From assembly GCA_964560355.1 (NCBI GenBank), contig CAZLLI010000002.1, forward strand, positions 3,622 to 67,621: 64,000 nt of DNA, read 5' to 3'. Position 1 is the stretch's first letter. The number at the start of each line of letters is the position of its first letter. The notes beneath the pieces are model-generated. The model did not search any database and was not told the DNA's origin. It saw nothing but the letters and a program-made list of their open reading frames with translations. The position numbers and the translations under genes were made by a program. Shown piece by piece: positions 7,459 to 59,731 of the stretch. This DNA is from an uncultured bacterium (GTDB lineage: Bacteria; Krumholzibacteriota; Krumholzibacteriia; WVZY01; JAKEHA01).

Positions 7459-10400
7459 ATGCGCCGTTCGATCGCCGTCCTTGCGTGCATCCTCTTCGTG
7501 GCGTCGCTTTCGGCGCACGCCGCGGAACCGGCCAAAAAGAAAGACGACAAGAAGTGGGACGTCGAAGCGCCGCTCGGCCCCACCAAGACGGTGGACTTCA
7601 CCACCGACGAGGGCACCTGGATGAACCTCGACGTGTCGCCCGACGGCAAGGAGATCGTGTTCGATCTTTTGGGCGACATTTACACCATCCCCATCACGGG
7701 CGGAAAGGCGACGCTGCTCCGCGGCGGCCCCGCCTTCGAGGTGCAGCCGCGCTTCTCGCCCGACGGCGCGCGCATCAGCTACACCTCCGACAAGGACGGC
7801 GCCGATAACATTTGGACCATGAAGCGCGACGGCAGCGACCCCAAGCAAGTCACCAAGGAAGATTTCCGCCTCGTCAACAACGCGGTGTGGACGCCCGACG
7901 GACAGTACCTGGTGGCGAAGAAACACTTCACGAGCACGCGCTCGCTCGGCGCGGGTGAGATGTGGCTCTACCACACCACCGGCGGCGAGGGCCTCCAGCT
8001 CACCAAGCGTCGCAACGACCAGCAGGACGTCGGTGAACCGTGCGTGTCGCGCGACGGCCGCTACGTCTACTTCAGCGAAGACATGAGCCCGGGGCCGTCG
8101 TTCCAGTACAACAAGGACCCCAACGGCGACATCTACGTGATCCGGCGCGTCGACCGCGAGACGGGCGAAGTGATCAACGCCATCACCGGCCCCGGCGGCG
8201 CCGTGCGCCCGCAGGTGTCGCCCGACGGCAAGAGCCTCGCGTACGTGCACCGCATTCGCGCCAAGACGGTCCTGTTCGTGCAGGACCTGGCGAGCGGCGA
8301 GCAGCGCCCGGTCTGGGACGGATTGAGCAAGGACCAAATGGAAACGTGGGCGACGTTCGGCGTGTATCCCAACTACCAGTGGATGCCGGACGGAAAGTCG
8401 ATCGTGGTGTGGGCGAAGGGGAAGATTTGGCGCGTCGACGTCGCGACGCGCGCGGCGACCAACATTCCTTTCGAAGTCCACGCGACGCACGTCGTCAACG
8501 ACGCACTCCGCTTCGCGCAGGATCCCGCGCCGGCGCATTTCGAAGCGAAGATGATTTGCCACGGCGTCACCTCGCCCGACGAAAAGTGGTTTGTGTTCAG
8601 CGCCGTGGGCCACATCTGGAAGAAACAACTCCCGAACGGCACGCCGGTCCGCGTCACCAAGGACGGTTGGTGGGAGTACTGGCCGTCCTTCAGCCCCGAC
8701 GGCAAGTGGCTCGTCTACACGACGTGGGACAACGACGCCGCCGGTTCCATTTATAAGGTGAAGCTCGACGGCGGCGGCAAGAAGAAGCTCACCACGCGCC
8801 CCGGCTTTTACCATTGCCCGTCGTTCTCGCCCGACGGCAAGCGCGTCGTGTTCCGGCGCGGGACCGGCAACGTGATCCTGGGCGTGTCGTACGGGACCGA
8901 GCCCGGGTTGTACTGGATGTCGGCCGACGGCGGCGACGCCACGTTGATTCGCGAAAGCGGCGACCTGCCGCGCTTCGCGAAGGACGGCGAGCGCGTCTAC
9001 TTCGTCGACGACGCCCCCGACAACAAGAGCGCGTTCAAGAGCGTGCGCGTCGACGGCGGCGACGAGCGCGTCATCTTCACCTCGAAGTACGCGACCCAAT
9101 TCGTGCCGAGCCCCGACGAAGAGTGGCTCGCGTTCACCGAGTTGTTCCAGGCCTACGTGGTCCCGTTCCCGAAGACGGGGCGCGAGATCGACTTGAGCGC
9201 CAAGGAGAAGATGTTTCCCATCAAGCAGGTCACGCGCGACGCGGGCAGCTTCCTGCACTGGTCGGCGGACAGCAAGAAGCTGCACTGGACCATCGGGCCC
9301 GAGTACTTCACGCGCGACCTCGCGCACAGCTTCAAGTTCGTGGCGGGCGCGGCCGACTCGATCGCGCCGCCCGATACCAGCGGGCTCGACATCGGCCTCC
9401 AGCTCGACTCCGACGTCCCCACCGGCGTCGTCGCGTTCACCAACGCGCGCATCCTGACCATGAAGGGCGACGAAGTCATCGAAAACGGCACCGTGGTAGT
9501 CGAAAAGAACCGCATCAAGGCGGTGGGCGAAGCGTCCGCGGTGGAGATTCCGCGCGGCGCGCACATCGTCGAGTGCGGCGGCAAGACCATCATGCCGGGG
9601 CTAATCGACGTGCACGCGCACATCGGTCTGCCGTCGATCACGCCCGCGCAAGCGTGGCCGTACTTGGTGAACCTCGCCTTCGGCGTCACCACCACGCACG
9701 ATCCGTCGAATCCGACCGAGATCGTGTTCACGAATTCGGAGATGGTGAAGGCGGGCGAATTGGTGGGTCCGCGCGTGTTCTCGACCGGCACCATCCTGTA
9801 CGGCGCCGACGGCGACTTCAAGGCGGTGATCAATTCGCTGGACGACGCGCGCTCGCACCTGCGCCGCATGAAGGCGGTGGGCGCGTTTTCGGTCAAGAGC
9901 TACAACCAGCCGCGCCGCAACCAGCGCCAGCAAGTGATCAAGGCCGCGCGCGAGCTGCAGATGATGGTGGTGCCGGAGGGCGGTTCGTTCTTCTTCCACA
10001 ACATGTCGATGATCCTGGACGGCCACACCGGCATCGAGCACACGATTCCCATCGCGCCCATCTATAAGGACGTGACCACGCTGTGGGGCGGCAGCAGGAC
10101 CGGTTCGACGCCGACTTTGATCGTGGGTTACGGCGGCCTGTGGGGCGAGGAGTACTGGTACCAGAAGACCAACGTGTGGGAGAACCAGCGCCTGCTCACC
10201 TTCACGCCGCGCGCGGTGATCGACGAGCGCTCGCGGCGCCGCACCATGTCGCCCGAGGACGAATTCAACCACATCGCGCTGGCGAAGAATTGCAAGCAGC
10301 TCCACGACGCCGGCGTCAGCGTCCAGCTCGGCGCCCACGGGCAGCTACAGGGACTCGGCGCGCACTGGGAGCTGTGGATGTTCACGCAAGGCGGCATGTC

Positions 10401-10728
10401 GAACATGGAAGCGCTCCACGCCGCGACGTCGAACGGCGCGTGGTACATCGGCATGGACAAGGACCTGGGGTCGCTGGAGCCGGGCAAGCTCGCGGACTTG
10501 ATCGTGCTCGACAAGAATCCGCTCGACGACATCCGCAACAGCGAGAGCATCGTGTACACGATGGCGAACGGCCACCTGTACGACGCGCACACCATGGACG
10601 AAGTCGGCAACCACCCGAAGAAGCGGCTGCCGTTCTACTGGGAGAAGCCGGGTGCCAGCGAAGCGTTCGTGTGGCAGAGCGAAGCCACCGGTTACATGCC
10701 GGGTGGCTGCGGCTGCTTCGCGCACTAG
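7459..10728 (+). CDS. TolB-like (PD40) beta-propeller fused to a metal-dependent amidohydrolase domain, secreted
   Basis: 1089 aa. Signal peptide and repeated FSPDGK PD40-like blades occupy the N-terminal 650 aa. The C-terminal amidohydrolase fold has IDVHAHIG and LDGHTGIEH motifs. Confidence 0.85.
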   Translation: MRRSIAVLACILFVASLSAHAAEPAKKKDDKKWDVEAPLGPTKTVDFTTDEGTWMNLDVSPDGKEIVFDLLGDIYTIPITGGKATLLRGGPAFEVQPRFSPDGARISYTSDKDGADNIWTMKRDGSDPKQVTKEDFRLVNNAVWTPDGQYLVAKKHFTSTRSLGAGEMWLYHTTGGEGLQLTKRRNDQQDVGEPCVSRDGRYVYFSEDMSPGPSFQYNKDPNGDIYVIRRVDRETGEVINAITGPGGAVRPQVSPDGKSLAYVHRIRAKTVLFVQDLASGEQRPVWDGLSKDQMETWATFGVYPNYQWMPDGKSIVVWAKGKIWRVDVATRAATNIPFEVHATHVVNDALRFAQDPAPAHFEAKMICHGVTSPDEKWFVFSAVGHIWKKQLPNGTPVRVTKDGWWEYWPSFSPDGKWLVYTTWDNDAAGSIYKVKLDGGGKKKLTTRPGFYHCPSFSPDGKRVVFRRGTGNVILGVSYGTEPGLYWMSADGGDATLIRESGDLPRFAKDGERVYFVDDAPDNKSAFKSVRVDGGDERVIFTSKYATQFVPSPDEEWLAFTELFQAYVVPFPKTGREIDLSAKEKMFPIKQVTRDAGSFLHWSADSKKLHWTIGPEYFTRDLAHSFKFVAGAADSIAPPDTSGLDIGLQLDSDVPTGVVAFTNARILTMKGDEVIENGTVVVEKNRIKAVGEASAVEIPRGAHIVECGGKTIMPGLIDVHAHIGLPSITPAQAWPYLVNLAFGVTTTHDPSNPTEIVFTNSEMVKAGELVGPRVFSTGTILYGADGDFKAVINSLDDARSHLRRMKAVGAFSVKSYNQPRRNQRQQVIKAARELQMMVVPEGGSFFFHNMSMILDGHTGIEHTIPIAPIYKDVTTLWGGSRTGSTPTLIVGYGGLWGEEYWYQKTNVWENQRLLTFTPRAVIDERSRRRTMSPEDEFNHIALAKNCKQLHDAGVSVQLGAHGQLQGLGAHWELWMFTQGGMSNMEALHAATSNGAWYIGMDKDLGSLEPGKLADLIVLDKNPLDDIRNSESIVYTMANGHLYDAHTMDEVGNHPKKRLPFYWEKPGASEAFVWQSEATGYMPGGCGCFAH

Positions 10729-13423: not shown

Positions 13424-13995
13424 AACCAAAGCGTCGAACCCCCGCCAGCCCCGCCTCCGAAGAAACCGTACTCCGCCTCACGCCCGCGAGCGAGCGCGAC
13501 GTCGACGCGTGGCGCGCGATGCGCGAGGACCTCTACGACGGCGTCGACGAGGCCTTCAACGAGTTCGAGATGGGACTCATCCTTGCGTCGAGCGACCGCG
13601 CGTGCCTGTTGGTGCGCGCGCCCAACGACGAAGCGGTGGGCTTCATCGAGGTGTCGCTGCGCAACGTCGTCGACGGCTGCCTGGGCGGCCCGGTCGGCTA
13701 CGTCGAAGGGATCTACCTGGTGCCGAGCTGGCGCGGGTTGGGTCTCGGCCCCGGCATGATCGAAGCCGTCGGCGAGTGGTTCCGCTCGCAGGGCTGCCGC
13801 GACATGGCCACCGACGCCGAGCTCGAGAACACCGACGCGCAGGAGTTCTGGAGCGACCTCGGCTTCGAGGAGACGTGGCGCATCGTGCAGTATCGAAAGT
13901 CGCTCGGCGAGCCGGAAGCGGACCAGAAGCGCAAGGCGAAGCGCAAGCCGTCGAAGGGGGCGCGCGCGGCGAAGAAGAAGTCGCGCCGGCGCTAG
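13420..13995 (+). CDS. AAC(6')-I-like GNAT aminoglycoside N-acetyltransferase homolog with Lys/Arg-rich C-terminal tail
   Basis: The core (VEGIYLVPSWRGLGLG..GC.DMATD..N..AQEFW..LGFEETWRIVQYRK) closely matches chromosomal AAC(6')-Iy/Iz enzymes. ATG overlaps the upstream TGA (ATGA). The 40-aa basic tail KRKAKRKPSKGARAAKKKSRRR is an addition. Confidence 0.75.
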   Translation: MKPKRRTPASPASEETVLRLTPASERDVDAWRAMREDLYDGVDEAFNEFEMGLILASSDRACLLVRAPNDEAVGFIEVSLRNVVDGCLGGPVGYVEGIYLVPSWRGLGLGPGMIEAVGEWFRSQGCRDMATDAELENTDAQEFWSDLGFEETWRIVQYRKSLGEPEADQKRKAKRKPSKGARAAKKKSRRR

Positions 13996-13999
13996 GGCC

Positions 14000-14584
14000 G
14001 TGGTCGAGACCGTCACCAGCATCTTTGCGGGCGTAGGGCTGGCCGCCGCGTGCGGCTTCCGCGTCTTCGTGCCGCTGCTCGTGTTGAGCATCGCGTCGAC
14101 CTTGGGAGCGATTCCGCTCGCGCACGACTTCGCGTGGATCGCGACCACGCCGGCGTTGATCGCGCTCGCCACCGCGACCGTGATGGAGATCGCCGCCTAC
14201 TACGTGCCGTGGCTCGACCACGCGCTCGACGTCATCGCGACGCCGGCCGCGATCCTGGCCGGCGTGATCGCGACCGCGGCGGTGCTGCCCGACGTGGGCC
14301 CGACGCTGCGCTGGGCGCTCGCGATCGTGGGCGGCGGCGGCGCGGCGGGCGCGGTGCAAGGCGCGACCGTTCTCCTGCGCCTCAAGTCGGGCGTCACGAC
14401 GGGCGGCGTCGCCAACCCGCTCGTGTCGACGGGGGAGACGGCGTCGTCGACGGTGACGTCGGTGCTCGCGGTCGTGGTCCCCATCCTCGCCTTCCTGCTC
14501 GTGCTCGCGACCGTGATTCTCTTGGTGGCACTCGCGCGCCGCGCGCTCGCGCCGCCGCGGCGCGAACCACCCCCGGCCGCGTAG
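14000..14584 (+). CDS. DUF4126-like membrane protein
   Basis: 194 aa with hydrophobic, Ala/Gly-rich TM helices. Confidence 0.55.
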   Translation: MVETVTSIFAGVGLAAACGFRVFVPLLVLSIASTLGAIPLAHDFAWIATTPALIALATATVMEIAAYYVPWLDHALDVIATPAAILAGVIATAAVLPDVGPTLRWALAIVGGGGAAGAVQGATVLLRLKSGVTTGGVANPLVSTGETASSTVTSVLAVVVPILAFLLVLATVILLVALARRALAPPRREPPPAA

Positions 14585-14635
14585 CGCGGGAAGCGCTGGA
14601 CGCCGCGCTCGGGTATTCGCTACCCTTCGGGACCG

Positions 14636-14944
14636 ATGAAACGGCTCCAGGTCTATTCCACCCCCGACATCACGGTGACCTTCGACCCGAACGTCTGCCG
14701 ACACTCCGGCGTGTGCCTGAGGACGCTCCCGAAGGTGTTCGACGTGCGCCGCGCCAAGTGGATCCACGCCGACGCCGCGGAGGCCGATCGCGTCGCCCAC
14801 GCGATCGAGAAATGCCCCTCGGGCGCGTTGCAGTATTACCGTAACGTCGACCGCGATCCTCAAGCAAGAGCACGACTTGACAGAGCGATGGCAGCCAACC
14901 AGGCGGCCCTCGCCGCTAGCGCCGACGAGACCGAGGAGTCGTGA
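14636..14944 (+). CDS. Divergent 4Fe-4S mono-cluster ferredoxin-like protein (DUF1271-like)
   Basis: 102 aa containing CRHSGVC and KCPSGAL cysteine motifs. Confidence 0.6.
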   Translation: MKRLQVYSTPDITVTFDPNVCRHSGVCLRTLPKVFDVRRAKWIHADAAEADRVAHAIEKCPSGALQYYRNVDRDPQARARLDRAMAANQAALAASADETEES

Positions 14945-14957
14945 CGCGACGCGCACC

Positions 14958-15827
14958 ATGAGTACCTTCCGACTCCCCGACGCCACCCACATCGGCTACG
15001 TGCACCTGCGCGTGCGCGACCTCGAGCGCACGCTCTCGTTCTACCTCGACGTGCTGGGCTTGAAGCTGGTGAGCGGCGGCATGAGCACGGCGACGCTCTC
15101 GGCCAACGGACGCGGGCCCGGGCTGCTCGTGCTGACCGAGAAGAAAGACGCGCCCGCGCGGCCCCCGCGCTCGCCGGGGCTGTACCACACCGCGTTCCGT
15201 GTTCCCAGCCGGCGTGCGCTCGCGCTCGCGATCGCGCACCTGCGCGACTCGGGCTGGCCGCTCGACGGATTCGCCGACCACGACGTGAGCGAAGCCGTGT
15301 ACCTCTCCGACCCCGAAGGCAACGGCATCGAAGTGTACGCGGACCGTCCGCGCGCGACCTGGCCGCTCCGCGACGGCCACGTCGAAATGGTGACGGTGCC
15401 GCTCGACCTGGACGACCTCATGCGCGAGCTCGCCGACTTCCCGGGCGCGTGGGAGGGCATCGACCCCGCGACCGACGTCGGCCACGTGCACCTGCGCGTG
15501 GGGGACCTCGAGCGCACGGAGGCGTTCTACGCGCACCTGCTCGGCTTCGACGTGACCCAGCGCACGCTCCCGCGCGCGCTCTTCATGTCCGCGGGCGGGT
15601 ATCACCACCACATCGGCGGCAACACCTGGCACAGCGAAGGGGGCCCGCGCCCACCCGCGGACGCGCACGGACTCATCTCCTACAGCGTGGTAGTGCCCGA
15701 CGCGACTGCGATCGCGTCGCTGGAAACGCGGCTGCGCGACGCGTCGGTGCCCGTGCGCACCGACAACGAGGGCGGCCTGCGCGCCGCCGACCCCGACGGC
15801 AACTTCATCGAAGTGGTGGCGGCGTAA
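14958..15827 (+). CDS. Two-domain VOC family protein (catechol 2,3-dioxygenase / glyoxalase-like)
   Basis: Duplicated HIGYVHLRV.DLERT and VGHVHLRVGDLERT modules. TAA overlaps the next ATG. Confidence 0.8.
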   Translation: MSTFRLPDATHIGYVHLRVRDLERTLSFYLDVLGLKLVSGGMSTATLSANGRGPGLLVLTEKKDAPARPPRSPGLYHTAFRVPSRRALALAIAHLRDSGWPLDGFADHDVSEAVYLSDPEGNGIEVYADRPRATWPLRDGHVEMVTVPLDLDDLMRELADFPGAWEGIDPATDVGHVHLRVGDLERTEAFYAHLLGFDVTQRTLPRALFMSAGGYHHHIGGNTWHSEGGPRPPADAHGLISYSVVVPDATAIASLETRLRDASVPVRTDNEGGLRAADPDGNFIEVVAA

Positions 15828-20428: not shown

Positions 20429-21088
20429 GTGTGCAAGCGGCGCAGCCCGTGCTATCCTGTATCTGTGCTAACCATCCTCGGCAACCGGCGCCAGGACATC
20501 CTGAAGGCGCTCCTCAACGACAAGAACGGGGCCACCGTCGACGAGCTGTCGCGGCGCCTCGCGGTCACGCGCAACGCGGTGCGCCAGCACCTGGCCGCCC
20601 TCGCGAACGACGGCTTGGTGCGCGCGGGGGTAACGCGTCCGACCGGCGGGCGCCCCGAGCAGCTCTACGTCCTCACCGAAGCAGGCCGCGAGTTGTTTCC
20701 GCGCCAGTACTCGTGGTTCGCGCAGTTGGTGGTGGAGTCGATCAAAGGGGAGTCGGGGGCGGAAGGGTTGCGCCGGCGCCTGGCGTCGCTGGGGAGCGCG
20801 GTCGCCAAGCAACTGCGCGCGCGCGCGAGTGCGCTCAAGAGCCGGCGCGAGAAGGTCGCGCGCCTGGCCGGTCTAATGAGCGAATTGGGTTACCACGCGA
20901 GGGCCTCGTCGCCGTCGGTCATCGAGGCGGACAACTGCGTGTTCCATGACTTGGCGAAGAAGCACCCCGAGGTGTGTCAGTTCGACCTGGCGCTGCTCGC
21001 GACCTTCACGGATTCCAAGGTAGAGCACGCCGAGTGCATGGCGAAGGGCGGCAACGTGTGCCGCTTCAAGTTCAGCTCCAGGCGCTAG
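20429..21088 (+). CDS. Winged-helix (ArsR/MarR-like) transcriptional regulator with Cys-rich C-terminal domain
   Basis: N-terminal HTH (VDELSRRLAVTRNAVRQHLAALANDGLV). The C-terminal 70 aa carry C.FH..C and C..C motifs, a putative metal site. Start is GTG 20429 or a downstream GTG. Confidence 0.65.
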   Translation: MCKRRSPCYPVSVLTILGNRRQDILKALLNDKNGATVDELSRRLAVTRNAVRQHLAALANDGLVRAGVTRPTGGRPEQLYVLTEAGRELFPRQYSWFAQLVVESIKGESGAEGLRRRLASLGSAVAKQLRARASALKSRREKVARLAGLMSELGYHARASSPSVIEADNCVFHDLAKKHPEVCQFDLALLATFTDSKVEHAECMAKGGNVCRFKFSSRR

Positions 21089-21091
21089 CGC

Positions 21092-23836
21092 CTACCGCAC
21101 CACCGTCACGCGCCGCGTGAGCACCGACGACGCAGCGCGCATCCGCACGAAATAGACCCCCGAGCTCACGCGCTCGCCGCGGTCGCCGCGCAGGTCCCAC
21201 GCGGCGGTGTGCATGCCTTTGGCGCGGCGCTCGTCGAGCACGGTGCGCACGCGCGCGCCGCGCACGTCGAATACCTCGATGCGCACGGGGCCGTCGTTCT
21301 CGACGCGGAAGCCGAGGGTGGCCGCGCGCCCGGTCGGATTTTCTCCCGCGATCCACAACAACGCCGGCGCGCCGCGCTTCGCGGGAAGGACCGCGGTCGC
21401 GGTGGTGTCGGGTACCGACGTCGGGTCGCCGGGGTCGGAGCCGGCGTCGAGTTCGTCGCCGTCGCGATAGCCGTCGAGATCGCGGTCGACGCCGAGCCGG
21501 TCTTCGCAGCCCTCCAGCACACCCGTGAACGTGATCTCGGTGCCGGCGCCCGCCATGGAGAGGAGCTGGAGCTGCGAGAGGTCGGCTTCGCTCTCCTTGT
21601 CGGGGCGATACGATCCGCCGCCGATGTACACCCACCCGCGCGGCTGTCCGCCCGCGCGTCCCTTCGCCACCAGCCCGATGGTGTTGGCGTCGGCGAGCGA
21701 CTCGAGCGTGTTCACGCGCGCGATGCCCGCGGGCTCGTTGCTCCCGTCCATGGTCCACTGCGCGCCCACGCCGGGGTGGGTCGGGGTGGCGAAGGCGAGC
21801 ATGAACGCTTCCACGTCGTGCTGGTCCTGGTCGTTCGCGAACGTGAACAACGGAAATTCGAAGAAGTCGAACAGCGTGCCGAATTCGCCGTCGTGGGTGA
21901 AACCGAAACCGCGCACGCTGGTCGGGCCCGCCGCGTTGAATCCGGTCTTCTTGTAGAGATTGCGCAGCTGCGGAACCTTGCGCGCTTCGTCTTGCAAGAG
22001 CGCGCCGGCGGGAATGATGAAACCGTTCTCGCCGGTGGGGAGCGTGTGACAGAACACGCACTGCCCGCCGCCGAACAACCCGCCGCTCGAAAACAACGAC
22101 TGGCCGTGCGACGGGTCGGCGCCGTCGAGCGTCGCGGGCAGCGAGCCGTCGAGCTCGCGGAACGGATTCGACGGGTAGCGCATGCTGAACACGAACTGCG
22201 TGAACGTCGTCATGTCGCCGGGCGAAAGCGACGACGGCGCGCCCAAGAGTCCCATGAAGGCGACGTTGAAATCGGCCAGCGTCGCGCGGTCGCCGCGCCA
22301 GTGCAGCGGCTCGGTGCCCGAGAGGCTCTTCAGAGCTTGCGTCACCATCGGGCCCTTCATGGGGTGGAACGGAGGCAAGCCCGGCGTTTGTCCGGGGGGC
22401 ACCGGGATGGTGGATGCCGCGGACGGGTCGCCCAGATCCCACGCCAAGCCGTCCATGTCGCCGAACACGTGACAACTCCCGCACGCCAAGTCTCCGTGCG
22501 CCGACGAGATCTCGCCGTCGTACAGGAAATGTCGGCCGTCGCGCACGTAGGAAGGACTCGGGTCGAACCCGAGCGAAACTTCCTGCGACGAATCGTTCGA
22601 CAAGTCGACCACCGAGATCGAGCTCGAGAAGCGGTCGAGGACGTAGAGGCGGTTGCGCGTCTCGTCGAGCGCGAGGCCGCCGGGCCCGTCGCCCACCGCG
22701 ATGCGCCGCGTCACCGCGCCGCTCGCGTCGAGCACCGCGACCTTGCGCGACCCGAACGCCGCCACGTACACCGACTGGCCGTCGCCCGCGATGGCGACGT
22801 CGAGCGGGATGCACACCGACTGCGCGCGCTCGCCCGCGTTGCCGGCCGGCGTCCCGTAGTCGATGTGTGCGTTCAAGTGCGACGGCGTCGCGATGCCGCT
22901 ATTCGGGTCGACGATCGTGATCCGGTTCTGCAGGAACTTGCCGCGCACATTGGGCTCGAAGCGGATCTGGTTCGACGCGTCCTGGTTGGTCACGTACAGA
23001 TTGCCCGACGGATGCACGGCGATATTGAACAGGGTAGTGCCGACGCCGTGATAGTTCGCGACCACCGAAAGCGACGCCGCGCTCACGGCGACGACGTCGT
23101 TGTCGAGCAGCGTGAAGGGAAGAAACGCGTCCCAGTTGCGCCCGATTTCGTCGAGCCAGTTGGCGCCGTCGTGCTGGACGATGAGCGCCACGTTCGGCGC
23201 CGCCGGCAGCGCGGGATTCATGGGCGGCGTGGGCGCCGGCAGCCCGCCGTTCGCCTGCACGACGTCGGCGCCCACCAGCGTGGTCCGGTTCCCGCTGTCG
23301 AGCGCGCACACGTACACGGTCGTTTGGTCCGGCGACAGCGCGAGCGCGCGCGGCGAACCCATCGCGAGCGGAATGTCGACGGGGGGCGCTTCGAGGTCGA
23401 GCAAGTCGTAGACGCGCAGCTTGGCTTCGCGCGACACGCACACGAACGCGCGCCCGCCCGCGAACACGACGTCGGTGGGTTCGTCGCCGACCAACAGCGT
23501 GCGCACCACGTGGCCGCTCGACAGGTCGACGATGCTAATGTCGTCGGAGACATGATTGACGACCCACACTTCGCTCGCCGTGCGCGCGCGCACGGTAACG
23601 GGCTCGAGCCCGACCATGACCTCCGCCATCTTGTGCGGCGGGTCGACGGTCAGGTCGAACGCGACCAAGCGATGGTCGGCGGTGTGCGCGGCGTAGAGGA
23701 TGTTGCCGCCCGGCGCCAAATCGAGCGGGTGCACGGGGGCGCTTTCGAAGTGCGTGAGGTCGTCGGAAAAGGAGAGCGACGGCGATAGGACCGACAGCAA
23801 TACCACAAGCGACGAACGGAGCGCGGTACCGAGCAT
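21092..23836 (-). CDS. Secreted beta-propeller (YVTN-like) fused to diheme cytochrome c peroxidase/MauG-like domain, with C-terminal FlgD-Ig/T9SS-type sorting domain
   Basis: 914 aa with a signal peptide. Two CxxCH heme motifs (CGSCH, CVFCH) lie in the central region. The C-terminus (VFDVRGARVRTV..GVYFVRMRA) resembles a Por-secretion tail. Confidence 0.8.
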   Translation of the reverse strand: MLGTALRSSLVVLLSVLSPSLSFSDDLTHFESAPVHPLDLAPGGNILYAAHTADHRLVAFDLTVDPPHKMAEVMVGLEPVTVRARTASEVWVVNHVSDDISIVDLSSGHVVRTLLVGDEPTDVVFAGGRAFVCVSREAKLRVYDLLDLEAPPVDIPLAMGSPRALALSPDQTTVYVCALDSGNRTTLVGADVVQANGGLPAPTPPMNPALPAAPNVALIVQHDGANWLDEIGRNWDAFLPFTLLDNDVVAVSAASLSVVANYHGVGTTLFNIAVHPSGNLYVTNQDASNQIRFEPNVRGKFLQNRITIVDPNSGIATPSHLNAHIDYGTPAGNAGERAQSVCIPLDVAIAGDGQSVYVAAFGSRKVAVLDASGAVTRRIAVGDGPGGLALDETRNRLYVLDRFSSSISVVDLSNDSSQEVSLGFDPSPSYVRDGRHFLYDGEISSAHGDLACGSCHVFGDMDGLAWDLGDPSAASTIPVPPGQTPGLPPFHPMKGPMVTQALKSLSGTEPLHWRGDRATLADFNVAFMGLLGAPSSLSPGDMTTFTQFVFSMRYPSNPFRELDGSLPATLDGADPSHGQSLFSSGGLFGGGQCVFCHTLPTGENGFIIPAGALLQDEARKVPQLRNLYKKTGFNAAGPTSVRGFGFTHDGEFGTLFDFFEFPLFTFANDQDQHDVEAFMLAFATPTHPGVGAQWTMDGSNEPAGIARVNTLESLADANTIGLVAKGRAGGQPRGWVYIGGGSYRPDKESEADLSQLQLLSMAGAGTEITFTGVLEGCEDRLGVDRDLDGYRDGDELDAGSDPGDPTSVPDTTATAVLPAKRGAPALLWIAGENPTGRAATLGFRVENDGPVRIEVFDVRGARVRTVLDERRAKGMHTAAWDLRGDRGERVSSGVYFVRMRAASSVLTRRVTVVR

Positions 23837-23975: not shown

Positions 23976-24293
23976 ATGCACTGGGTTTATTTGTTCTGCG
24001 CGGGCGTGATGGAGTGGGGTTGGCCCATCGGGCTCAAGTTCGCGTCGCAACCGCAGCACCGTCAGTGGGCCATTCCCATGGCGATCGTTTCTATTGTATT
24101 GAGCGGGTGGCTCTTGCTGCTTGCGCAGCGCGCGATTCCCATCGGCACCGCTTACGCGGTGTGGACCGGCATCGGCGCGGTGGGGACGTTCGTGCTGGGC
24201 ATCCTCTTGCTCGGCGAGCCCGCGCAGCTCGCGCGCTTCTTCTTCGTCGGACTGATTATCGTGGGGATCTTGGGACTGAAGTGGGTCAGCTAG
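23976..24293 (+). CDS. sugE: SMR family guanidinium/quaternary ammonium exporter (SugE/Gdx)
   Basis: 105 aa with 4 TM helices. GTAYAVWTGIGAVG matches E. coli SugE closely, and the conserved Glu sits in TM1 (MEWGWP). Confidence 0.9.
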   Translation: MHWVYLFCAGVMEWGWPIGLKFASQPQHRQWAIPMAIVSIVLSGWLLLLAQRAIPIGTAYAVWTGIGAVGTFVLGILLLGEPAQLARFFFVGLIIVGILGLKWVS

Positions 24294-27875: not shown

Positions 27876-28493
27876 ATGAAGAGGGCAAGCAAAGTCGTGG
27901 TCGGTATCGTCGCCGCGGCGGCGGTGGGGGCGTGCGGGAACACGCAGGTGCTCAATTCGTGGACCGATTCACAGATGACGCCCGCGCCGGCCAAGCGCAT
28001 CGTGGTGGTGGGGCTCTCCGGCGTCGAAACCACGCGCCGCTTGTTCGAAGACACCTTCAGCCAAGAGCTCAAGAACCGCGGCAACGACGCGGTGCCGGGT
28101 TACACGGTGCTCCCGAAAGGTCTCGAAGCGAATCCGGACTCGGCGCTCGCCGCCATTCGCAAGGCCGGCTTCGACGCGGCGCTGACCGCGCGCTCGATGG
28201 GCGTTCGCACCGAGGAAACGGAGACGGTGGGAACCGCGTACTACATTCCCGACTCCGGCTACTCGACCTGGGGCGGCTACTACGGCGCCGTCTACGGCGA
28301 TATCACCGCCAACACCTACACGCAGCGCTCGGAGAAAGCCATGGTCGAGACCAACCTCTACCAAACGGCGAACGCCAAGCTGGTGTGGAGCGCGCGCTCG
28401 GAAACGACGAGTACCGGCAAGCTCACCGAGGGCATGCGCGACTACGCGCGCACGGTGGTGGGCGAGCTCGGAAAGAGCGGCTTCATCAAGTGA
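27876..28493 (+). CDS. DUF4136-like lipoprotein
   Basis: GGAGG RBS 6 nt upstream of the ATG. Signal peptide with lipobox (AVGAC). Confidence 0.7.
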
Positions 28494-28509
28494 GGCGGGC
28501 GCGGCGCAC

Positions 28510-30120
28510 ATGATCGGTTACCTGGCGCGGAAGGTCCGACGCCACCGCGCACGGCGAACGTTTCGCGAGTACGGCTTCGACGTAAAGCGCTTCGCGCTCG
28601 CGCGCGACGGCGACGTCGAGTACGCGCAGTGGCAGCACCCCTTCGAGAAACCGAAGACGATCGTGCAGGACGACGTCGACGGGCTGCGGCGCTTCATCCG
28701 CGCGGGCGACACCGCCATCGACGTGGGCGCGCACACCGGCGACACCACGGTGCCGATGGCGCTCGCGTGCGGCCCCGACGGCGTCGTGGTGGCGTTCGAG
28801 CCCAACCCGCACGTGTTCAAGGTGCTCGAGGAAAACGCGCGCCTCAACCCCGACAAGACTCACATCGTCGCGCTCAATTTCGCGGCCACCGAAGACGACG
28901 GCGACTTCCAGTTCCACTACTGGGACGCGTCGTTCGGAAACGGCGGCTACCTCTCGCGCCTTCGCAACCAGCGCCACGGCCACCGCTATCCGCTGCGCGT
29001 GAAGGGGCGCAACCTCGAGCGCTACCTGCGCACGAACTTCGCCGACCGCCTCGCGCGCCTCACGTTCCTCAAGACCGACTGCGAGGGCTACGACAAGGAT
29101 GTGCTGCGCTCGTTGCGCGGGGTGTTGCGGGAGTTCCGCCCCGTCGTCGTGTGCGAAGTGCACAAGAAGCTCGACCACGCCGAGCGTCATGAGCTCTTCG
29201 ACGTGCTGAAGGACGCCGGCTACGTCCTCCACACGTACCAAGGCGGCGCGCACCCGGTGGGCGACGCCCTCGCGCGCGACGACCTCGCGAAGTTTCCGCG
29301 CCTCGACGTGATCGCGTTCCCCGAGGAGAGGGGAGCCGGCGAGACCCGCGGGGACGCGGGACGCCAACCGCTCCCGTCGACCGCGTCCACGCCGTTCGTC
29401 GAGCGGCGCGCGACGCCGATCGGCCGCGCGCAGCGCGTGCTCAAGGTCGCGGGGTGGATCTTCGTGGCGTGGATCGTGCTCACGGTCGGGCCCGTGATCG
29501 CGCTGCGGTGGGTCGACCCGCCGACCTCGGCCTTCATGGTGCAGCGCCGCATCGAGGGGCTCGTGCACCCGTCGCACCGCGTCGCCATCCAGTACCACTG
29601 GGTCGACATGGACCGCGTGTCGAAGAACACGCGCCTCGCCATGATCGCGGCCGAAGACCAGCGCTTCACCGAACACGACGGCTTCGACTTCGACGCGATC
29701 GAGAAGGCGCGCGAGCACAACCGCCGGCGCGGGCGCTTGCGCGGCGCGAGCACCATCTCGCAGCAGGTGGCGAAGAACTTGTTCCTGTGGCCCGGTCGCA
29801 GCTGGTTTCGCAAGGGCGTCGAGGCGGGTTATACCATCCTCATCGAAGCGTTGTGGCCCAAGAAGCGCGTGCTCGAGGTGTACCTCAACATCGCGGAGTT
29901 CGGCGACGGCGTCTACGGCGTCGACGCGGCGTCGCGGCGCTTCTTCCACAAGTCGCCCGCGCGCCTGGGCCGGCATGAGAGCGCGCTGCTCGCGGCCGTG
30001 CTGCCCAACCCGCGCCGCTTCAAGGTCGACAAGCCGTCGAAGTACGTCGAGCGGCGCGCGTGGTGGATCGAGCGCCAGATGATTCGACTGGGCCCGGCCG
30101 CGCTGGAGCCGCTGTCGTGA
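28510..30120 (+). CDS. Fusion protein: FkbM-family methyltransferase (N-terminal about 270 aa) + monofunctional peptidoglycan glycosyltransferase MtgA (GT51, C-terminal about 250 aa)
   Basis: FkbM motifs [18 protein letters not shown] helix follows, then the MtgA hallmarks [30 protein letters not shown] and NIAEFG. One uninterrupted ORF. Confidence 0.8.
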
Positions 30121-30548
30121 CCACGACGCGCGCACTCGCCTACGGTTGGGCGTCTCCCACCACGGCGGTCGGCTTGGTGCTGGTGGCGGCGGCGCTGGCG
30201 ACGGGCGCGCGCGCGTCCGTGGTCGACGGCGTGGTGGAGGCGCACGGCGGATTGCTCGACGCGATGCTGCGTCGCTTCGTGCCGTTGCGCGGCGGGGCCA
30301 GCGCGATGACGCTCGGGCACGTCGTGGTGGGGCGCGATCCGGGATCGCTCGATCGCACGCGCGCGCACGAGCGCGCGCACGTGCGCCAGGCGGAACGGTG
30401 GGGTCCGTTCTTCCTCCCCGCGTACGTGGCGTCGTCGCTCGCGGTCGCGCTGCGCGGCGGGCACTACTATCGCGACAATCGTTTCGAGCGCGAGGCGGTC
30501 GCGGTGGCGTCGCAGGGTGCTCGGGCACCGGAAGGAGTCCGCTCGTGA
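30117..30548 (+). CDS. Hypothetical protein with HExxH (HERAH) motif, putative mini metallo-hydrolase
   Basis: GTG start overlapping the upstream TGA. 143 aa with a hydrophobic N-terminus. In frame with track ORF 30060-30548. Confidence 0.5.
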
Positions 30549-30889
30549 AGGTCACGCTGGTCACCGTTCTCCTGCTCACCGCGTCGAACGTCTTCATGAC
30601 CTTCGCGTGGTACGGACACTTGAAGCACATGCACGCGAAGCCGTGGTTCGTAGCGGCGCTGGTGAGCTGGGGAATCGCGTTCTTCGAGTACATGATCCAG
30701 GTTCCGGCCAACCGCATCGGGTTCCGGGTGATGGATCTCGCGCAGCTCAAGATTCTGCAGGAAGTGGTGACGCTCTCCGTGTTCATCCCGTTCGCGGTGT
30801 TCTACATGCGGGAGCGCCCGCGCCTCGACTATTTGTGGGCGGCGATGTGCCTCTTGGGAGCCGTCTACTTCATGTTCCGGCGCCCCTAG
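30545..30889 (+). CDS. DMT-superfamily small membrane protein (DUF486-like)
   Basis: GTG start overlapping the upstream stop. 114 aa with 4 TM helices and a YGHLKH motif. Confidence 0.6.
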   Translation: MKVTLVTVLLLTASNVFMTFAWYGHLKHMHAKPWFVAALVSWGIAFFEYMIQVPANRIGFRVMDLAQLKILQEVVTLSVFIPFAVFYMRERPRLDYLWAAMCLLGAVYFMFRRP

Positions 30890-31035
30890 GGCCTCTCGAT
30901 TTTGCTTTGACCGCGGCGTCGAACTGGCCTACGATACGTGGGTTACAGGACCGATGGGGGACGGTCCGTGGGCCATCACGCACCCTTCTCGCGCGCCCGG
31001 CGCCTGGCCGGTCCGCCTCGCCGCAAGCGGCCACC

Positions 31036-33651
31036 ATGGTTCGGTTTCTCCCCAGCCTTCGTGTTGTGGCGTTGATCGCCTTCGTCGCGGCGACCGCGCC
31101 GGTCGCGCGCGCCGGCGTCGACCCCGACTCGCTGTACCTCGCGCGCCATCCCACCCTCTTCTTCGGCCCCGGCGACGTGCCCGCGCTGCGCGCGCGCGTC
31201 GAAGCCCCCGGCGCCCCCGCCGACGCCTTCGCCTTCATCCGCGACGCCGTCCACGACACCTATCCGGCGGTGCCGATCGATTCGCTGATCGACAACGACT
31301 TCGCGCAGGAGCCGATCATGAATCTCGGGCTGGTCGGTTTCTTGAGCGACCCCGTCGACGACGACGCGCTCGCGCTCGGGCGCGCGCTCACCCTCCACAT
31401 CGTGCGCACCTGGGACGTCGACACCGACGCCTTCGGGTCGTCGCTGCGCCTGCGCCAGATGGCGATCGGGTACGACCTCTACTTCGCGGGTGCGACACCG
31501 CTCGAGCGCGCCGAGGTGCGCGCCGAAGTCGCGAGCTACATTTCGTACATCGTTTCCAGCATGGCGTACGACATCTGGCTGCACCGCCCGTACGCGAGCA
31601 ACAAGAGCGCGATGATCGCCGCCGCGCTGGGCCTGGCCGCAATCTCGTTCCGCGACGAGATCGCCCCCACGCTGACCGCGGCCGCGTTCGCGCGCTGCAC
31701 GGCGCTCTACGACGTGTGGCGCTCAACCTACATCGCGGACGACGGGTGCTATCGCGAAGGCGCGCTGTACGGCGCGTGGAGCTTCCGCAACCTGATTTAC
31801 TACTTCCAGGCGCGCACGCGCTTCGACGGGACCTCGTTCTCCAACGACTGGGCGGTGCGCGAGTTCGAGCGTTGGTACGCGTACGAGCTCGACCCGCGCG
31901 GCGGCGCGCGCTTGAACAACATCCAGGACCTGACCGACTACTACCTGCCGCTCGCGCGCCACACCACGTACTTGGAGTGGGCGATGTCGGAGTGGGGAAG
32001 CGGACTCGCGCGCTATATCTGGGACCGCGCGTCGGGGCCGCTCGGCGTCGACCTAGGCGACGAGAACGACAAGGCGGCGACGGTGCTGTGGCATGAGGAC
32101 GTGCCGTCGATCAACCCGGGGACAATCCTCCCCGAGAGCGCGCTGTGGAAGGGACGCGGGCTGTATTACTACCGCTCGGGCTGGGCGGACGGAGCCTCGT
32201 CGGACGACATCTCGCTCAGCTTCTACTCGGGCGAATTTCGCGGCGGCCACGCCCAGGAGGACCAGAATCAATTCACGCTGACCGCCTTCGGCGAGAAGCT
32301 CGTGATCGACCACGGCGCCGGCGGCACGGCGCGCCAGAGCGAAGCGCACAACATCGTGCGCATCGACCTCGCGGGACAGTTCAACGCGGGCGCGTCGATC
32401 GGCACCGACGGCCGCATCGCGCAGTCGATGCTGACCGGCTTCGCGGACTATCTGTGCGGCGACGCCACCGCCGCGTACACCACGCACAGCCCCTACAACA
32501 ACCCCGGCGTGCCCTACCCGGCGACGGATTGGTCGTGGGGTTACGGCGGCGCGAATCCGGTCGAGCGCGCGCTGCGGCGCATGGTGGTCGTGCACGGCGC
32601 GGGCTTTCCGACCTATTTCATCGTGCAGGACGACATTCTCAAGGACGGTGCCGTGCACCGCTACGACTGGTGCGCGCACTTCCCGGATTCGTCGACCATC
32701 GATGCGTCGGCGCCCAAGGGCCCCATCGCGGTCGCCGTGGGCGGGGCGCGCCTCGATTTGCACACGCTGTTTCCGCCCAAGCCAGCGCTTGCGGGCGTGA
32801 TCCGGACCACGTTCGATAACCAGGCCGAGGATCCCGACTCGAGGCTTTTGATGCTGACGACCTTCGCGATCAATCCGAAGTTCGCGCTGCTGCTAATCCC
32901 GCGGCGCGCGGGCGACGCCGCTACGGTGGTGCAATCGTCGACCTTCCCGGCCGGCACCATGAGCGTGGTGCGCTCGCCGTCGGGCGCGCTCGACGTGGTG
33001 TGGGTGCGCGGCAATCACGTCGGGCCGGTGGCGCCGCCGCCCGCCGGCGACGACGGCGAGGGGTGCGGCCCGGTCTCGATCGACGCCGAGCTCGCGGTGG
33101 TGCGAATGGGGGCGGCGGGCGTCGAGCGCTATCTCGCGGTCGACGCGCGCTCCATCGCGTGCGCGTCCGGCGACGTCGTCACGATTCTCGACGGCACCGC
33201 GACCTTCGCCTTCGACGGTACGCGCGTCACCATCGACCGGCCCGACGCCGAGTTTCGCATCCTCGCCGACGGTGTGAGCGAAGTCGTGTGCGACGGCGCG
33301 GTGGTCCCGACCGGCCTCGACGGCCGCTACTTGGTGCGCGTCTCCGCCACCGCGGTGACGACACCCGCGCGCGGCGACGGGCTGGGGCTGCGCGCGTATC
33401 CGAATCCGTTCAACCCGTCGGTGCGCATCCGCTTCGCCACCGCGGCGCGCGCGCACGTCGATGCGCGCGTCTACGACGCCGCCGGTCGCTTCGTGGCGAC
33501 GCTCGCGTCGGGCGCGATGGCGGGCGGTGAACACTCGATGGAGTGGAACGGACGCGACCACCGCGGCCGTGAAGCGGCGAGCGGCGTGTATTTCCTGCGC
33601 GTGCGCGCGGGGTCGGCGAGCGAATCGTTGAAACTGGTGCTGGTGCGTTAA
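31036..33651 (+). CDS. Heparinase II/III-like (alginate lyase / polysaccharide lyase) protein with C-terminal T9SS-type sorting domain
   Basis: Signal peptide, alpha/alpha toroid N-terminal region and a heparinase II/III-like middle region. The C-terminus AYPNPFNPSVRIRF..VYDAAGRFV..GVYFLRVRAG is a canonical FlgD-Ig/Por-secretion tail. Confidence 0.8.
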   Translation: MVRFLPSLRVVALIAFVAATAPVARAGVDPDSLYLARHPTLFFGPGDVPALRARVEAPGAPADAFAFIRDAVHDTYPAVPIDSLIDNDFAQEPIMNLGLVGFLSDPVDDDALALGRALTLHIVRTWDVDTDAFGSSLRLRQMAIGYDLYFAGATPLERAEVRAEVASYISYIVSSMAYDIWLHRPYASNKSAMIAAALGLAAISFRDEIAPTLTAAAFARCTALYDVWRSTYIADDGCYREGALYGAWSFRNLIYYFQARTRFDGTSFSNDWAVREFERWYAYELDPRGGARLNNIQDLTDYYLPLARHTTYLEWAMSEWGSGLARYIWDRASGPLGVDLGDENDKAATVLWHEDVPSINPGTILPESALWKGRGLYYYRSGWADGASSDDISLSFYSGEFRGGHAQEDQNQFTLTAFGEKLVIDHGAGGTARQSEAHNIVRIDLAGQFNAGASIGTDGRIAQSMLTGFADYLCGDATAAYTTHSPYNNPGVPYPATDWSWGYGGANPVERALRRMVVVHGAGFPTYFIVQDDILKDGAVHRYDWCAHFPDSSTIDASAPKGPIAVAVGGARLDLHTLFPPKPALAGVIRTTFDNQAEDPDSRLLMLTTFAINPKFALLLIPRRAGDAATVVQSSTFPAGTMSVVRSPSGALDVVWVRGNHVGPVAPPPAGDDGEGCGPVSIDAELAVVRMGAAGVERYLAVDARSIACASGDVVTILDGTATFAFDGTRVTIDRPDAEFRILADGVSEVVCDGAVVPTGLDGRYLVRVSATAVTTPARGDGLGLRAYPNPFNPSVRIRFATAARAHVDARVYDAAGRFVATLASGAMAGGEHSMEWNGRDHRGREAASGVYFLRVRAGSASESLKLVLVR

Positions 33652-43672: not shown

Positions 43673-43797
43673 TTTCGCGGACGTCCCCGTTCCTCCCGGC
43701 AAAGTTTTCCTCCTCGCCCCGCGTGCGGCGGGGGGGCATTTGTGTACTCTTCTTGCTCACTTGATTGCACTTACTCCGCTCGGAGACGCGGGGAAAC

Positions 43798-48346: not shown

Positions 48347-48772
48347 ATGAACCCGAAGTTCTTCACCGTCGAGGAAGCGAACGCCCTCATTGGCTTCCTG
48401 GAAAATTCACTCGAGAGGATCCGACGCAACCGCCAGCGCTATTTGTGGCTGCTGGAGGAGATCGCGATCCTCAAGTTGATCGTGGAATGCGGCGCCGACG
48501 AGGCCAACCGCGACACGGTCGACCTGGAAGAGAAGACCCACGAGCTCAAGGCCGTGGAAGCGGAGATCGACAAGGCGCGCGCTTCGGTTCGCGACGCCGG
48601 TTGCATCTTGAAGGACGAAGAGAAGGGCCTGGTCGACTTCTTCTCGATCCAGAGCAACACGGTGGTCTACCTGTCGTGGAAGCGCGGCGAAGATTCGGTC
48701 AAGTTCTGGCGTTCGATTCGGGACGCCGATAGCAACGTGCGCCGGCCCTTGGAAGGGTCGCCGTCAACGTAG
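48347..48772 (+). CDS. DUF2203-like hypothetical protein
   Basis: AAGGAG RBS 6 nt upstream. 141 aa, helical and acidic. Confidence 0.6.
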   Translation: MNPKFFTVEEANALIGFLENSLERIRRNRQRYLWLLEEIAILKLIVECGADEANRDTVDLEEKTHELKAVEAEIDKARASVRDAGCILKDEEKGLVDFFSIQSNTVVYLSWKRGEDSVKFWRSIRDADSNVRRPLEGSPST

Positions 48773-48836
48773 TTACGCCCAGCAGAGTAGTCACGGTCGA
48801 CGACGCCGCCGGAGAGACTCCGGCGGCGTTTTCGTT

Positions 48837-50525: not shown

Positions 50526-50684
50526 GGGACTCCCGTCGTTTGAAAGACCACGGCATGATAACCAGTCGGCGCGGAGTCGTCAAAAGCGACCGCGTCGACG
50601 CCCGTCGAAGCCCTTGACATTCCGCGCCGTTCGGGTAGATTAGGCCGACCGCGCGGCGCGCCCGCGCCCACTCGAAACGCAACC

Positions 50685-55211: not shown

Positions 55212-55330
55212 CGATGGCTCCTGGGAAGAAGGCTCCGCTACGCCCACGGCGGCGAACGGGACGACGAGAACCTTGCCCTAGATTTTATCAGAGGCCGCGA
55301 ACGAGCGTCAATTGCGGCCTAGGCGCCTGA

Positions 55331-58465: not shown

Positions 58466-58542
58466 GGCGCGACGCTCCGTCGCGGGCGCGTGGCGGGTGC
58501 CGCGGGCGTATGATATGGTGGACGCGAACCAGGAGTAGACGC

Positions 58543-59145: not shown

Positions 59146-59263
59146 CCGGTGCGTCGGCCCCAAAGCAAAGGGGCCTGCCGCCGACCAGGAGCAGACCCAC
59201 TTTGCGCTACACAACACCATGGTTAGGCTGGTAGCACGTTCAAAGTAGGCGAGGTCGCCGCCA

Positions 59264-59722: not shown

Positions 59723-59731
59723 TCGTCTCCC

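Follow-up and report, generated by a model that had tools for sequence, protein, structure and literature searches.

Within a 64,000-nucleotide stretch of contig CAZLLI010000002.1, from an uncultured bacterium of the Krumholzibacteriota (hereafter the window, whose numbering is used throughout), we analyzed the gene at 21092..23836 on the minus strand, which encodes a protein of 914 amino acids. Sequence profiles and structural models indicate that this protein is a stand-alone fusion resembling hydrazine synthase (HZS) subunits beta and gamma, and as such it fits the description of the distant fused HZS beta-gamma homologs that Hagglund et al. (Genome Biol Evol 2025, PMC12758564) called "highly prevalent in environmental bacteria." We consider it probable that the protein is an exported c-type cytochrome acting as a small-molecule redox enzyme, and that it is neither a classical peroxidase nor a hydrazine synthase. 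It is an uncharacterized member of a recognizable family; no new system was found. The original prediction for this gene, made by a model from the sequence alone, had described an unusual three-part architecture. The three parts stand: an exported YVTN propeller, a diheme domain with the fold of the cytochrome c peroxidases (CCPs) and MauG, and a tail like the sorting domains of the type IX secretion system (T9SS). The architecture is not unusual, since the whole protein has at least 7,969 matches and the fusion is already in PMC12758564, and two further parts had been missed, a module at residues ~691-782 and a TSP3-like linker. The parts and motifs are listed below; bCCP stands for bacterial cytochrome c peroxidase and pLDDT for the predicted local distance difference test.

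21092..23836, minus strand: whole gene, ATG start, 914 codons and stop, monocistronic
23768..23836, minus strand: putative Sec-type signal peptide, residues 1-~23 (MLGTALRSSLVVLLSVLSPSLSF), with Arg7 and a hydrophobic core
22562..23755, minus strand: beta-propeller of the YVTN type with about seven blades, residues ~28-425, carrying insertions at ~189-247 and ~321-342
21767..22561, minus strand: diheme cytochrome c region with the bCCP/MauG/HZS-gamma fold, residues ~426-690, mostly helical
22469..22483, minus strand: haem-1 motif CGSCH (C452, C455, H456), residues 452-456, corresponding to the peroxidatic (P) haem in bCCPs and to haem gamma-I in HZS
22346..22366, minus strand: HPMKGPM loop, residues 491-497, with P-M-K-G-P-M-x-T-Q invariant across phyla
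22286..22303, minus strand: HWRGDR, residues 512-517, aligned with CcpA FWDGRA, W513 being the equivalent of the inter-haem Trp
22046..22060, minus strand: haem-2 motif CVFCH (C593, C596, H597), residues 593-597, corresponding to the electron-transfer (E) haem in bCCPs and to haem gamma-II in HZS
21959..21979, minus strand: KVPQLRN, residues 620-626, counterpart of bCCP KVPTLRN, R625 invariant
21887..21910, minus strand: GFGFTHDG, residues 643-650, counterpart of bCCP YPYFHDG, H648 invariant across phyla
21491..21766, minus strand: conserved alpha/beta module, residues ~691-782, mixed helices and strands, pLDDT >90
21407..21490, minus strand: Asp-rich TSP3-like linker (calcium-binding type; VDRDLDGYRDGDELDAGSDPGDP...), residues 783-810, end of the conserved core
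21095..21373, minus strand: FlgD-Ig/T9SS type A-like sorting domain, residues ~822-914, a seven-strand beta-sandwich

In the full-length AlphaFold2 model, built on 50 relatives and without haems (mean pLDDT 88.9, predicted template modeling score, pTM, 0.84), these parts follow one another in the order leader, propeller, diheme region, alpha/beta module, Asp-rich linker and C-terminal beta-sandwich. Structure prediction had been proposed together with the original prediction, and it returns the seven-bladed propeller, the diheme region and the beta-sandwich tail; the propeller, which had been placed at residues ~30-450, extends over ~28-425 according to the model. The core of the leader reaches a Kyte-Doolittle mean of 2.16 and is modelled as a low-confidence helix at residues 4-16, and relatives of all phyla have an equivalent leader ending directly before an invariant FESxPVHP motif. 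From its sequence, the protein is predicted to be Sec-exported. The propeller contains 30 beta-strands between residues 38 and 421, with pLDDT >90, and matches the YVTN repeat TIGR02276 in three stretches (42.5 bits, cutoff 27.85). Its top Foldseek match is HZS-beta (5c2v_B, E 3.7e-19, template modeling score, TM(target), 0.75), followed by a YVTN S-layer propeller (1l0q, E 9.2e-18). The same two structures are found by searching the PDB with the family profile, the archaeal YVTN S-layer protein 1l0q at 1.5e-32 and HZS-beta 5c2v_B at 4.1e-15. The propeller begins with invariant F30-E31-S32-x-P-V35-H36-P37, at the very start of the mature protein, and its other invariant polar residues among the 50 close relatives include D229, D245, D247 and R292.

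The two CxxCH motifs had been put about 140 residues apart; CGSCH (452-456) and CVFCH (593-597) are separated by 141 residues. Both are invariant in the 50 close relatives and in a set of 34 relatives spread over several phyla (Acidobacteriota, Planctomycetota, Binatia, Myxococcota, Chloroflexota and Gammaproteobacteria; hereafter the cross-phylum set), and their conservation across the family is far beyond chance. CGSCH is followed by an (L/I)xWDLGD motif common to HZS-gamma; it aligns with the first CxxCH of Shewanella CcpA using hhalign and, together with WDLGD, with that of HZS-gamma in the profile, while CVFCH aligns with the second CxxCH of CcpA. Searches of Pfam, NCBIfam and the PDB with the single sequence gave CCP and HZS-gamma matches that were all sub-threshold, and profiles were needed. 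The domain searches suggested with the original prediction had a mixed outcome: YVTN scored above its cutoff, and CCP_MauG (PF03150) scored below it for the 914-residue protein (13.4 bits, cutoff 25.6) and was reached through profiles and relatives. At E<=1e-3, 22 of the 50 close relatives match CCP_MauG, and three that were checked score 25.8-27.9 bits. The cross-phylum profile of the diheme region matches HZS-gamma (5c2v_C, 5e-12), CcpA (3o5c, 5.2e-7, spanning both haems), the Nitrosomonas CCP (1iqc, 2.8e-6) and a MauG-like "Di-heme enzyme" (6e1c, 5.2e-6) in the PDB. The original prediction depended on a CCP/MauG fold being recognizable around the motifs and on a reading frame that is not split in relatives: hhalign recognizes CcpA with a probability of 97.65% over 216 columns spanning both haems, and the frame is full-length in thousands of relatives. 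Foldseek searches of the full-length model were swamped by propellers, and residues 422-810 were therefore re-modelled alone (pLDDT 79, pTM 0.81). This model has HZS-gamma as its first match (probability 1.00), followed by six diheme peroxidase chains, with ~315-325 columns each. These results support the assignment of the diheme region to the bCCP/MauG superfamily, although the single-sequence Pfam threshold was missed. The nearest solved relatives of the protein are HZS-beta for the propeller and HZS-gamma for the diheme region, with peroxidases and MauG more distant. An assignment to RoxA-like or fatty-acid-dioxygenase-like proteins was considered and dropped: no such structure is among the top 50 Foldseek matches of the 422-810 model.

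Hydrazine synthase was long believed to be without relatives. The first report of beta-gamma-like fusions in bacteria other than anammox bacteria came in late 2025; these proteins have two canonical haem motifs and a Trp replacing gamma-His144, they have no assigned function, and the report focuses on clades whose genes adjoin a homolog of the alpha subunit (PMC12758564). Like HzsBC of "Ca. Scalindua" and HZS-beta and HZS-gamma of K. stuttgartiensis (5c2v, chains B and C), the protein described here has, in this order, a YVTN-type propeller of seven blades and a diheme domain resembling CCPs, and like HZS-gamma it has WDLGD after haem 1. The relationship is very distant, since NCBIfam models NF052341, NF052342 and NF052340 give 17.6, 53.1 and 62.3 bits (cutoffs 625, 1250 and 560), with hydrazine_beta, hydrazine_BC and hydrazine_gamma all matching weakly. 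Trp513 sits at the CCP Trp position, which PMC12758564 equates with gamma-His144, so the HZS His is not present; in this the protein is like the non-anammox homologs, as far as can be judged by that paper's description. Residues 425-700 hold only four Cys, all of them in the CxxCH motifs. Therefore, no third thioether of the gamma-Cys165 type is possible. The protein also has no additional haem motifs at the N terminus. No HZS alpha-subunit gene was found among the scanned open reading frames (ORFs) of the window or in 80 related loci, which distinguishes the protein from clades I-IV of PMC12758564. Beyond HZS, it has its own C-terminal module (residues 691-782), the TSP3-like linker and the sorting tail. 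A limited literature search found no characterized YVTN-diheme fusion, nothing specific on T9SS in Eisenbacteria or Krumholzibacteria, and no paper on the missing distal helix, the additional module or the exchangeable tails in this family.

How much of the peroxidase machinery is left? We took the defining features of bCCPs and MauG from PMC10094543 and PMC6405878 and used the hhalign register against CcpA. A HMMER register placing CcpA FWDGR on FHPMKG was dropped for the hhalign pairing of HWRGDR with FWDGRA, which also fits the two-lobe symmetry of THDG and FHDG. In this register, the diheme region shares with bCCPs (CcpA 3o5c, Nitrosomonas 1iqc, Neisseria 6qkn) the two-lobe fold, both CxxCH motifs, KVPxLRN, xFHDG, a loop at the distal-His position, and the inter-haem Trp. 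The latter is W513, which matches the Trp of CcpA FWDGR and lies in an H-W-R that is invariant in the cross-phylum set; it corresponds to Trp98 of NgBCCP and Trp93 of MauG (PMC10094543, PMC6405878). In bCCPs, this Trp is followed by a catalytic helix of ~21-28 residues. The helix is absent here: hhalign leaves a gap of 28 residues, positions W+10/+14/+20 are F/F/A instead of the Q/P/E of CcpA, and the Trp-to-haem-2 spacing is 84 residues (family median 84.5) compared with 105 in CcpA and with 106 from Trp98 to His204 in NgBCCP (PMC10094543). The deleted positions are those of the distal triad, i.e., Gln103/Pro107/Glu113 in MauG and Gln108/Glu118 in NgBCCP (PMC6405878, PMC10094543). The triad is common to bCCPs, MauG and BthA, and changing it is detrimental to peroxide binding (PMC6405878); its role within bCCPs is described in PMC10094543. 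Its absence therefore argues against classical peroxidase or MauG chemistry.

Other differences from bCCPs concern the remaining ligands and the overall layout. Between haem 1 and the Trp there are ~18 extra residues, and a propeller is fused to the whole region. P662 is the residue aligned with the Met ligand of the E-haem (CcpA AVNTM), and downstream of haem 2 there is no conserved Met. The Ca2+ site between the haems of bCCPs and MauG is made by an Asn side chain and by Thr and Pro carbonyls (PMC10094543, PMC6405878); the counterpart of the Asn (CcpA SPTVLN) is Ser504, a Gly in the consensus sequence, and the other ligands are backbone carbonyls, on which sequence is silent. The HPMKGPM loop is set by hhalign next to the distal-His loop of CcpA (GHHW), but adjacent to a gap, which makes the exact register ambiguous; H491, M493 or M497 could be the sixth ligand of haem 1. 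With MauG, MbnH and BthA, the protein shares the superfamily fold and, as in MauG, the inter-haem Trp. Unlike them, it has no candidate for the MauG-type Tyr ligand of a six-coordinate haem (there is no Tyr within residues 649-700), no distal Gln/Pro/Glu, and no mauA/mauB- or mbnP-type substrate gene nearby. By these comparisons, W513, both haem motifs and the haem-2 signatures are conserved, and the distal helix, the E-haem Met and the HZS-specific residues are absent.

The explanation we favor, a stand-alone HZS beta-gamma-like redox enzyme, could work as follows. The haems would be attached in the periplasm. Haem 2 would be the point of electron entry or exit, exchanging with an external partner as in bCCPs, and W513 would relay electrons over the ~20 Å between haem 2 and haem 1. 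The haem-1 lobe would pack against the propeller, which we infer because its pLDDT drops once the propeller is removed: residues 452-501 have values of 86-92 in the full-length model and of 38-73 when the domain is modelled alone. With or without the propeller, pLDDT is above 80-90 in the haem-2 lobe and the extra module. The invariant HPMKGPM loop, perhaps together with propeller residues, would provide the distal side of haem 1 in place of a peroxidase helix. This could result either in a six-coordinate resting haem that opens on reduction, in the style of classical bCCPs, or in a composite pocket. At haem 1, a small molecule would then undergo a redox reaction that is neither classical peroxide reduction nor hydrazine synthesis, and the tail of the FlgD-Ig/T9SS type would take the holo-protein, already folded, through the outer membrane to the surface of the cell. 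One can speculate further, although we think it unlikely, that the protein represents a new class of exported or surface haem enzyme, with a composite site in which the invariant polar face of the propeller (E31, H36, D229, D245, D247, R292 and E294) and HPMKGPM lie over haem 1, echoing HZS beta-gamma. Such an enzyme would catalyze an undescribed small-molecule redox reaction on an ancestral-type scaffold for HZS recruitment; its substrates would be, for example, nitrogen oxides or hydroxylamine, or else reactive species of oxygen or sulfur.

Several observations weigh against an HZS beta-gamma-like redox enzyme targeted to the surface. The comparisons single out no catalytic residue, and therefore the protein could be a pure electron carrier. 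The 422-810 model, which has no haems and is of low confidence around haem 1, superposes only modestly on HZS-gamma and the CCPs (TM 0.35-0.43, root mean square deviation ~10 Å), so that its structural match amounts to recognition of the fold and not to close similarity. The putative interface between propeller and haem 1 is drawn from differences in pLDDT, not from coordinates. Finally, the T9SS machinery (porU/V, sprA, porK-N) was not found within the window.

The main rivals to our explanation are that the protein purely carries electrons and that it is a plain peroxidase. As a non-catalytic cytochrome for electron transfer, with two six-coordinate haems, it could be a surface conduit or a redox partner docked via the propeller. 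The loss of the peroxidase distal pocket and the presence of tails of a surface-targeting type in several lineages would suit such a role. The invariant HPMKGPM could also give a His or Met sixth ligand, because its P-M motif lies 37-41 residues past H456, a spacing at which the Met loops of class I cytochromes c are typically found. We nevertheless regard a pure carrier as unlikely: downstream of haem 2 there is no conserved candidate for a sixth ligand (residues 673, 679, 687 and 696 all vary), no redox-partner gene is conserved nearby in the 80 loci, and the strict Trp and a core of ~800 residues with invariant polar propeller residues (E31, H36, D229, D245, D247, R292) seem to exceed the needs of a carrier. 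Peroxide detoxification, one of the functions put forward in the original prediction, has become doubtful with the deletion of the distal Gln/Pro/Glu helix (W+10/+14/+20), here and in most of the family, and with the loss of the E-haem Met, replaced by Pro662; the Ca-site Asn aligns to Ser or Gly. A conventional diheme peroxidase removing H2O2 at the surface, with the propeller as a passive scaffold, would account for the bCCP fold and haem spacing, the inter-haem Trp, KVPxLRN and xFHDG, and for the recognition of 22 of the 50 relatives by CCP_MauG. Yet the same Pfam model is sub-threshold for the 914-residue protein, HZS-gamma is closer than any peroxidase, and such an enzyme is, in our judgment, rather improbable.

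The other function that had been put forward, oxidative modification of a propeller-bound substrate, is also doubtful in its MauG-type form, given the deleted triad and the absent Tyr ligand. A MauG/MbnH-like protein oxidase would use a high-valent diheme state to modify a protein residue or its own propeller. The retention of W513 as in MauG and the profile match to MauG-like 6e1c (E 5.2e-6) are compatible with this, and MauG itself acts on a substrate complex that includes a propeller, methylamine dehydrogenase. But there is no Tyr in 649-700, the Gln/Pro/Glu required by MauG is absent (PMC6405878), and no substrate-protein gene is conserved nearby in the 80 loci; we give this possibility very little credit. 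Chemistry on nitrogen oxides like that of HZS-gamma, such as the conversion of NO to NH2OH or the opposite, in a half-reaction that stands alone, might be expected of a protein whose closest solved relatives are HZS-beta and HZS-gamma and which has WDLGD in common with the latter. It is made quite unlikely by the Trp in place of gamma-His144 (following the equivalence of PMC12758564), by the lack of a third Cys, by NCBIfam scores of 17-62 bits compared with cutoffs of 560-1250, and by the absence of an alpha-subunit homolog in the window or near relatives.

The C-terminal part of the protein suggests a distinction between a core and a variable tail. The alpha/beta module has no Pfam or NCBIfam match, and in the 50 close relatives K725, G734 and T769 are invariant and W735 is nearly so. 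Matches in other phyla reach residues ~795-810, which includes the module in the family core in all phyla. In the linker, D786, D788, D792, D794 and E795 are invariant among the close relatives; the match to TSP3_bac is weak (15.2 bits) and is significant in 10 of the 50. A disordered stretch (811-821, pLDDT <50) then leads to the tail. The original prediction had seen there a degenerate T9SS/FlgD-Ig sorting domain, and the scores agree: FlgD_ig (PF13860) gives 31.7 bits (cutoff 27), TIGR04183 (T9SS type A) is borderline and just below its cutoff at 22.9 (cutoff 23), and Por_Secre_tail (PF18962) is well below at 14.5 (cutoff 27). Among the close relatives, FlgD_ig is matched by 46 of 50 and PF18962 by 13 of 50. 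With its ~90-residue seven-strand sandwich placed after a disordered linker, the tail is like the C-terminal domains (CTDs) of T9SS type A cargo and the FlgD Ig-like fold, and it resembles the C terminus of PorU (6za2_A, profile match at 1.9e-4). Most likely, the tail sends the holo-protein through a type IX-like pathway to the surface, as predicted from its sequence.

Among the matches listed in contigs from one genome per species, hardly any outside Eisenbacteria and Krumholzibacteria run through the tail. Elsewhere, extended ORFs show the core followed by replaced tails: Pyrinomonadaceae have repeat domains of ~230-250 amino acids, Phycisphaerae have dockerin-like DxNxDGxV repeats, Binatia and Myxococcota have other beta domains, and Blastocatellia have no tail. 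This diversity of C-terminal modules suggests that localization modules have been swapped repeatedly, and the tail is best taken as an interchangeable device for sorting or anchoring that is not part of the catalytic unit. The Pyrinomonadaceae/Acidobacteriota repeats (loci L012 and L015) have a YxxFLxRxPDxxG-type motif, the dockerin-like repeats of Phycisphaerae and other Planctomycetota (L043, L051, L054 and L063) end in WGxCP, and loci of Binatia, Myxococcota and uncultured bacteria (L033, L078, L049 and L067) have the other beta domains as tails. The window has another ORF with a C-terminal T9SS type A/FlgD-Ig tail, at 30517-33651 on the plus strand (1044 amino acids; TIGR04183 30.5 bits, cutoff 23; FlgD_ig 42.9), whose ~950 residues preceding the tail have no Pfam or NCBIfam match. 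The presence of this second CTD-tagged ORF suggests that the sorting signal is in use.

The family is large. With the diheme region (query residues 425-790), a search of representatives at 50% identity gives 2,449 matches with E<=1e-3, 604 of them reaching E<=1e-30, and in complete proteins the match nearly always starts at residue ~420-520, behind an N terminus of the size of a propeller. In contigs from one genome per species, at least 572 candidate stretches were confirmed, with coverage of residues ~27-800 in all phyla. Features that are invariant or nearly so in both the close and the cross-phylum sets are the two CxxCH motifs, WDLG, HPMKGPMxTQ (491-500), HWR (512-514), R625, and GxGxxHDG with H648; the ordered set of haem 1, WDLG, HWR and haem 2 is present in 252 of 269 fetched family proteins. 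The core (residues ~28-810) is conserved over many phyla in a gene that stands by itself and has no conserved partners. The gene belongs to a very abundant stand-alone branch, present in phyla of soils and sediments (Krumholzibacteriota, Eisenbacteria, Acidobacteriota, Planctomycetota, Binatia, Myxococcota). This branch retains the wire of two haems and the relay through Trp, is without the residues that handle peroxide and has repeatedly gained surface or extracellular sorting-like tails. Knowledge of its reaction would fill a gap in a superfamily that includes peroxidases, protein oxidases, dioxygenases and an NO-reducing subunit, and it could shed light on the evolution of hydrazine synthase. 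Two paralogous copies were found on different contigs in two Eisenbacteria metagenome-assembled genomes (MAGs) and one Pyrinomonadaceae MAG (L002/L016, L004/L020 and L025/L071). A full-length copy of the Eisenbacteria type, with a T9SS-like tail, is encoded in a contig of 211,791 bp (L011, DATJGS010000019.1) from a MAG labelled Candidatus Saccharimonadaceae. A diheme T9SS-tagged protein is unexpected in this group, and the bin label may be wrong.

The gene itself is genuine. Its ATG is preceded by a Shine-Dalgarno sequence (AGGAG) ~10 nt upstream, the protein has an identical NCBI record (P0001), and ~110 of the 120 best relatives are unsplit proteins of ~890-960 amino acids with 50-78% identity. 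The top named relatives come from MAGs of Candidatus Krumholzibacteria, Candidatus Eisenbacteria and Gemmatimonadota, the closest one (76% identity) from Krumholzibacteria. The GC content of the window is 63-72%, with many spurious long ORFs. Long ORFs overlap the gene on the plus strand and in other frames, an effect of the 67-68% GC there; homology backs the 914-codon frame only, the overlapping ORFs being without support. The two flanking genes are as follows.

20429-21088, plus strand: ArsR-type winged-helix (helix-turn-helix) regulator with a C-terminal match to MetOD1 (methanogen output domain 1), in convergent orientation to the cytochrome gene
23976-24293, divergent from the start of the cytochrome gene: SMR transporter

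The regulator ends 3 nt from the stop codon of the cytochrome gene and is not a conserved neighbor among relatives. Other neighbors have housekeeping functions (TypA/BipA, inositol monophosphatase, prolyl oligopeptidase). We searched the 80 related loci for a conserved operon partner, such as an alpha-subunit homolog, a cytochrome donor or an FG-GAP protein, and no neighbor family was conserved; the commonest one, a generic sigma-54-type response regulator, occurs in 13 of the 80 loci at variable distance and orientation. FG-GAP/CRTAC1 genes lie beside HZS-like clusters according to PMC12758564. In six Planctomycetota loci (e.g., L048:5466-7955), a large FG-GAP-like repeat protein is encoded within ~0.7 kb of the family gene. 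The scanned ORFs of the window include no HZS-alpha-like gene, no further cytochrome and no haem-maturation genes. They do include tandem genes for NHL-repeat/teneurin-NHL-like propeller proteins of 415 and 426 amino acids (52708-53955 and 53967-55247, both on the minus strand), and an ORF of 1089 amino acids (7459-10728, plus strand) with N-terminal TolB-like propeller repeats and a C-terminal amidohydrolase/Xaa-Pro dipeptidase-like region. Five ORFs of 449-766 amino acids have no Pfam or NCBIfam match at the thresholds used (28486-30786, 48667-50694, 58462-60603 and 13643-14992 on the minus strand, and 43740-45443 on the plus strand), and some of them may be spurious in a window of ~67% GC.

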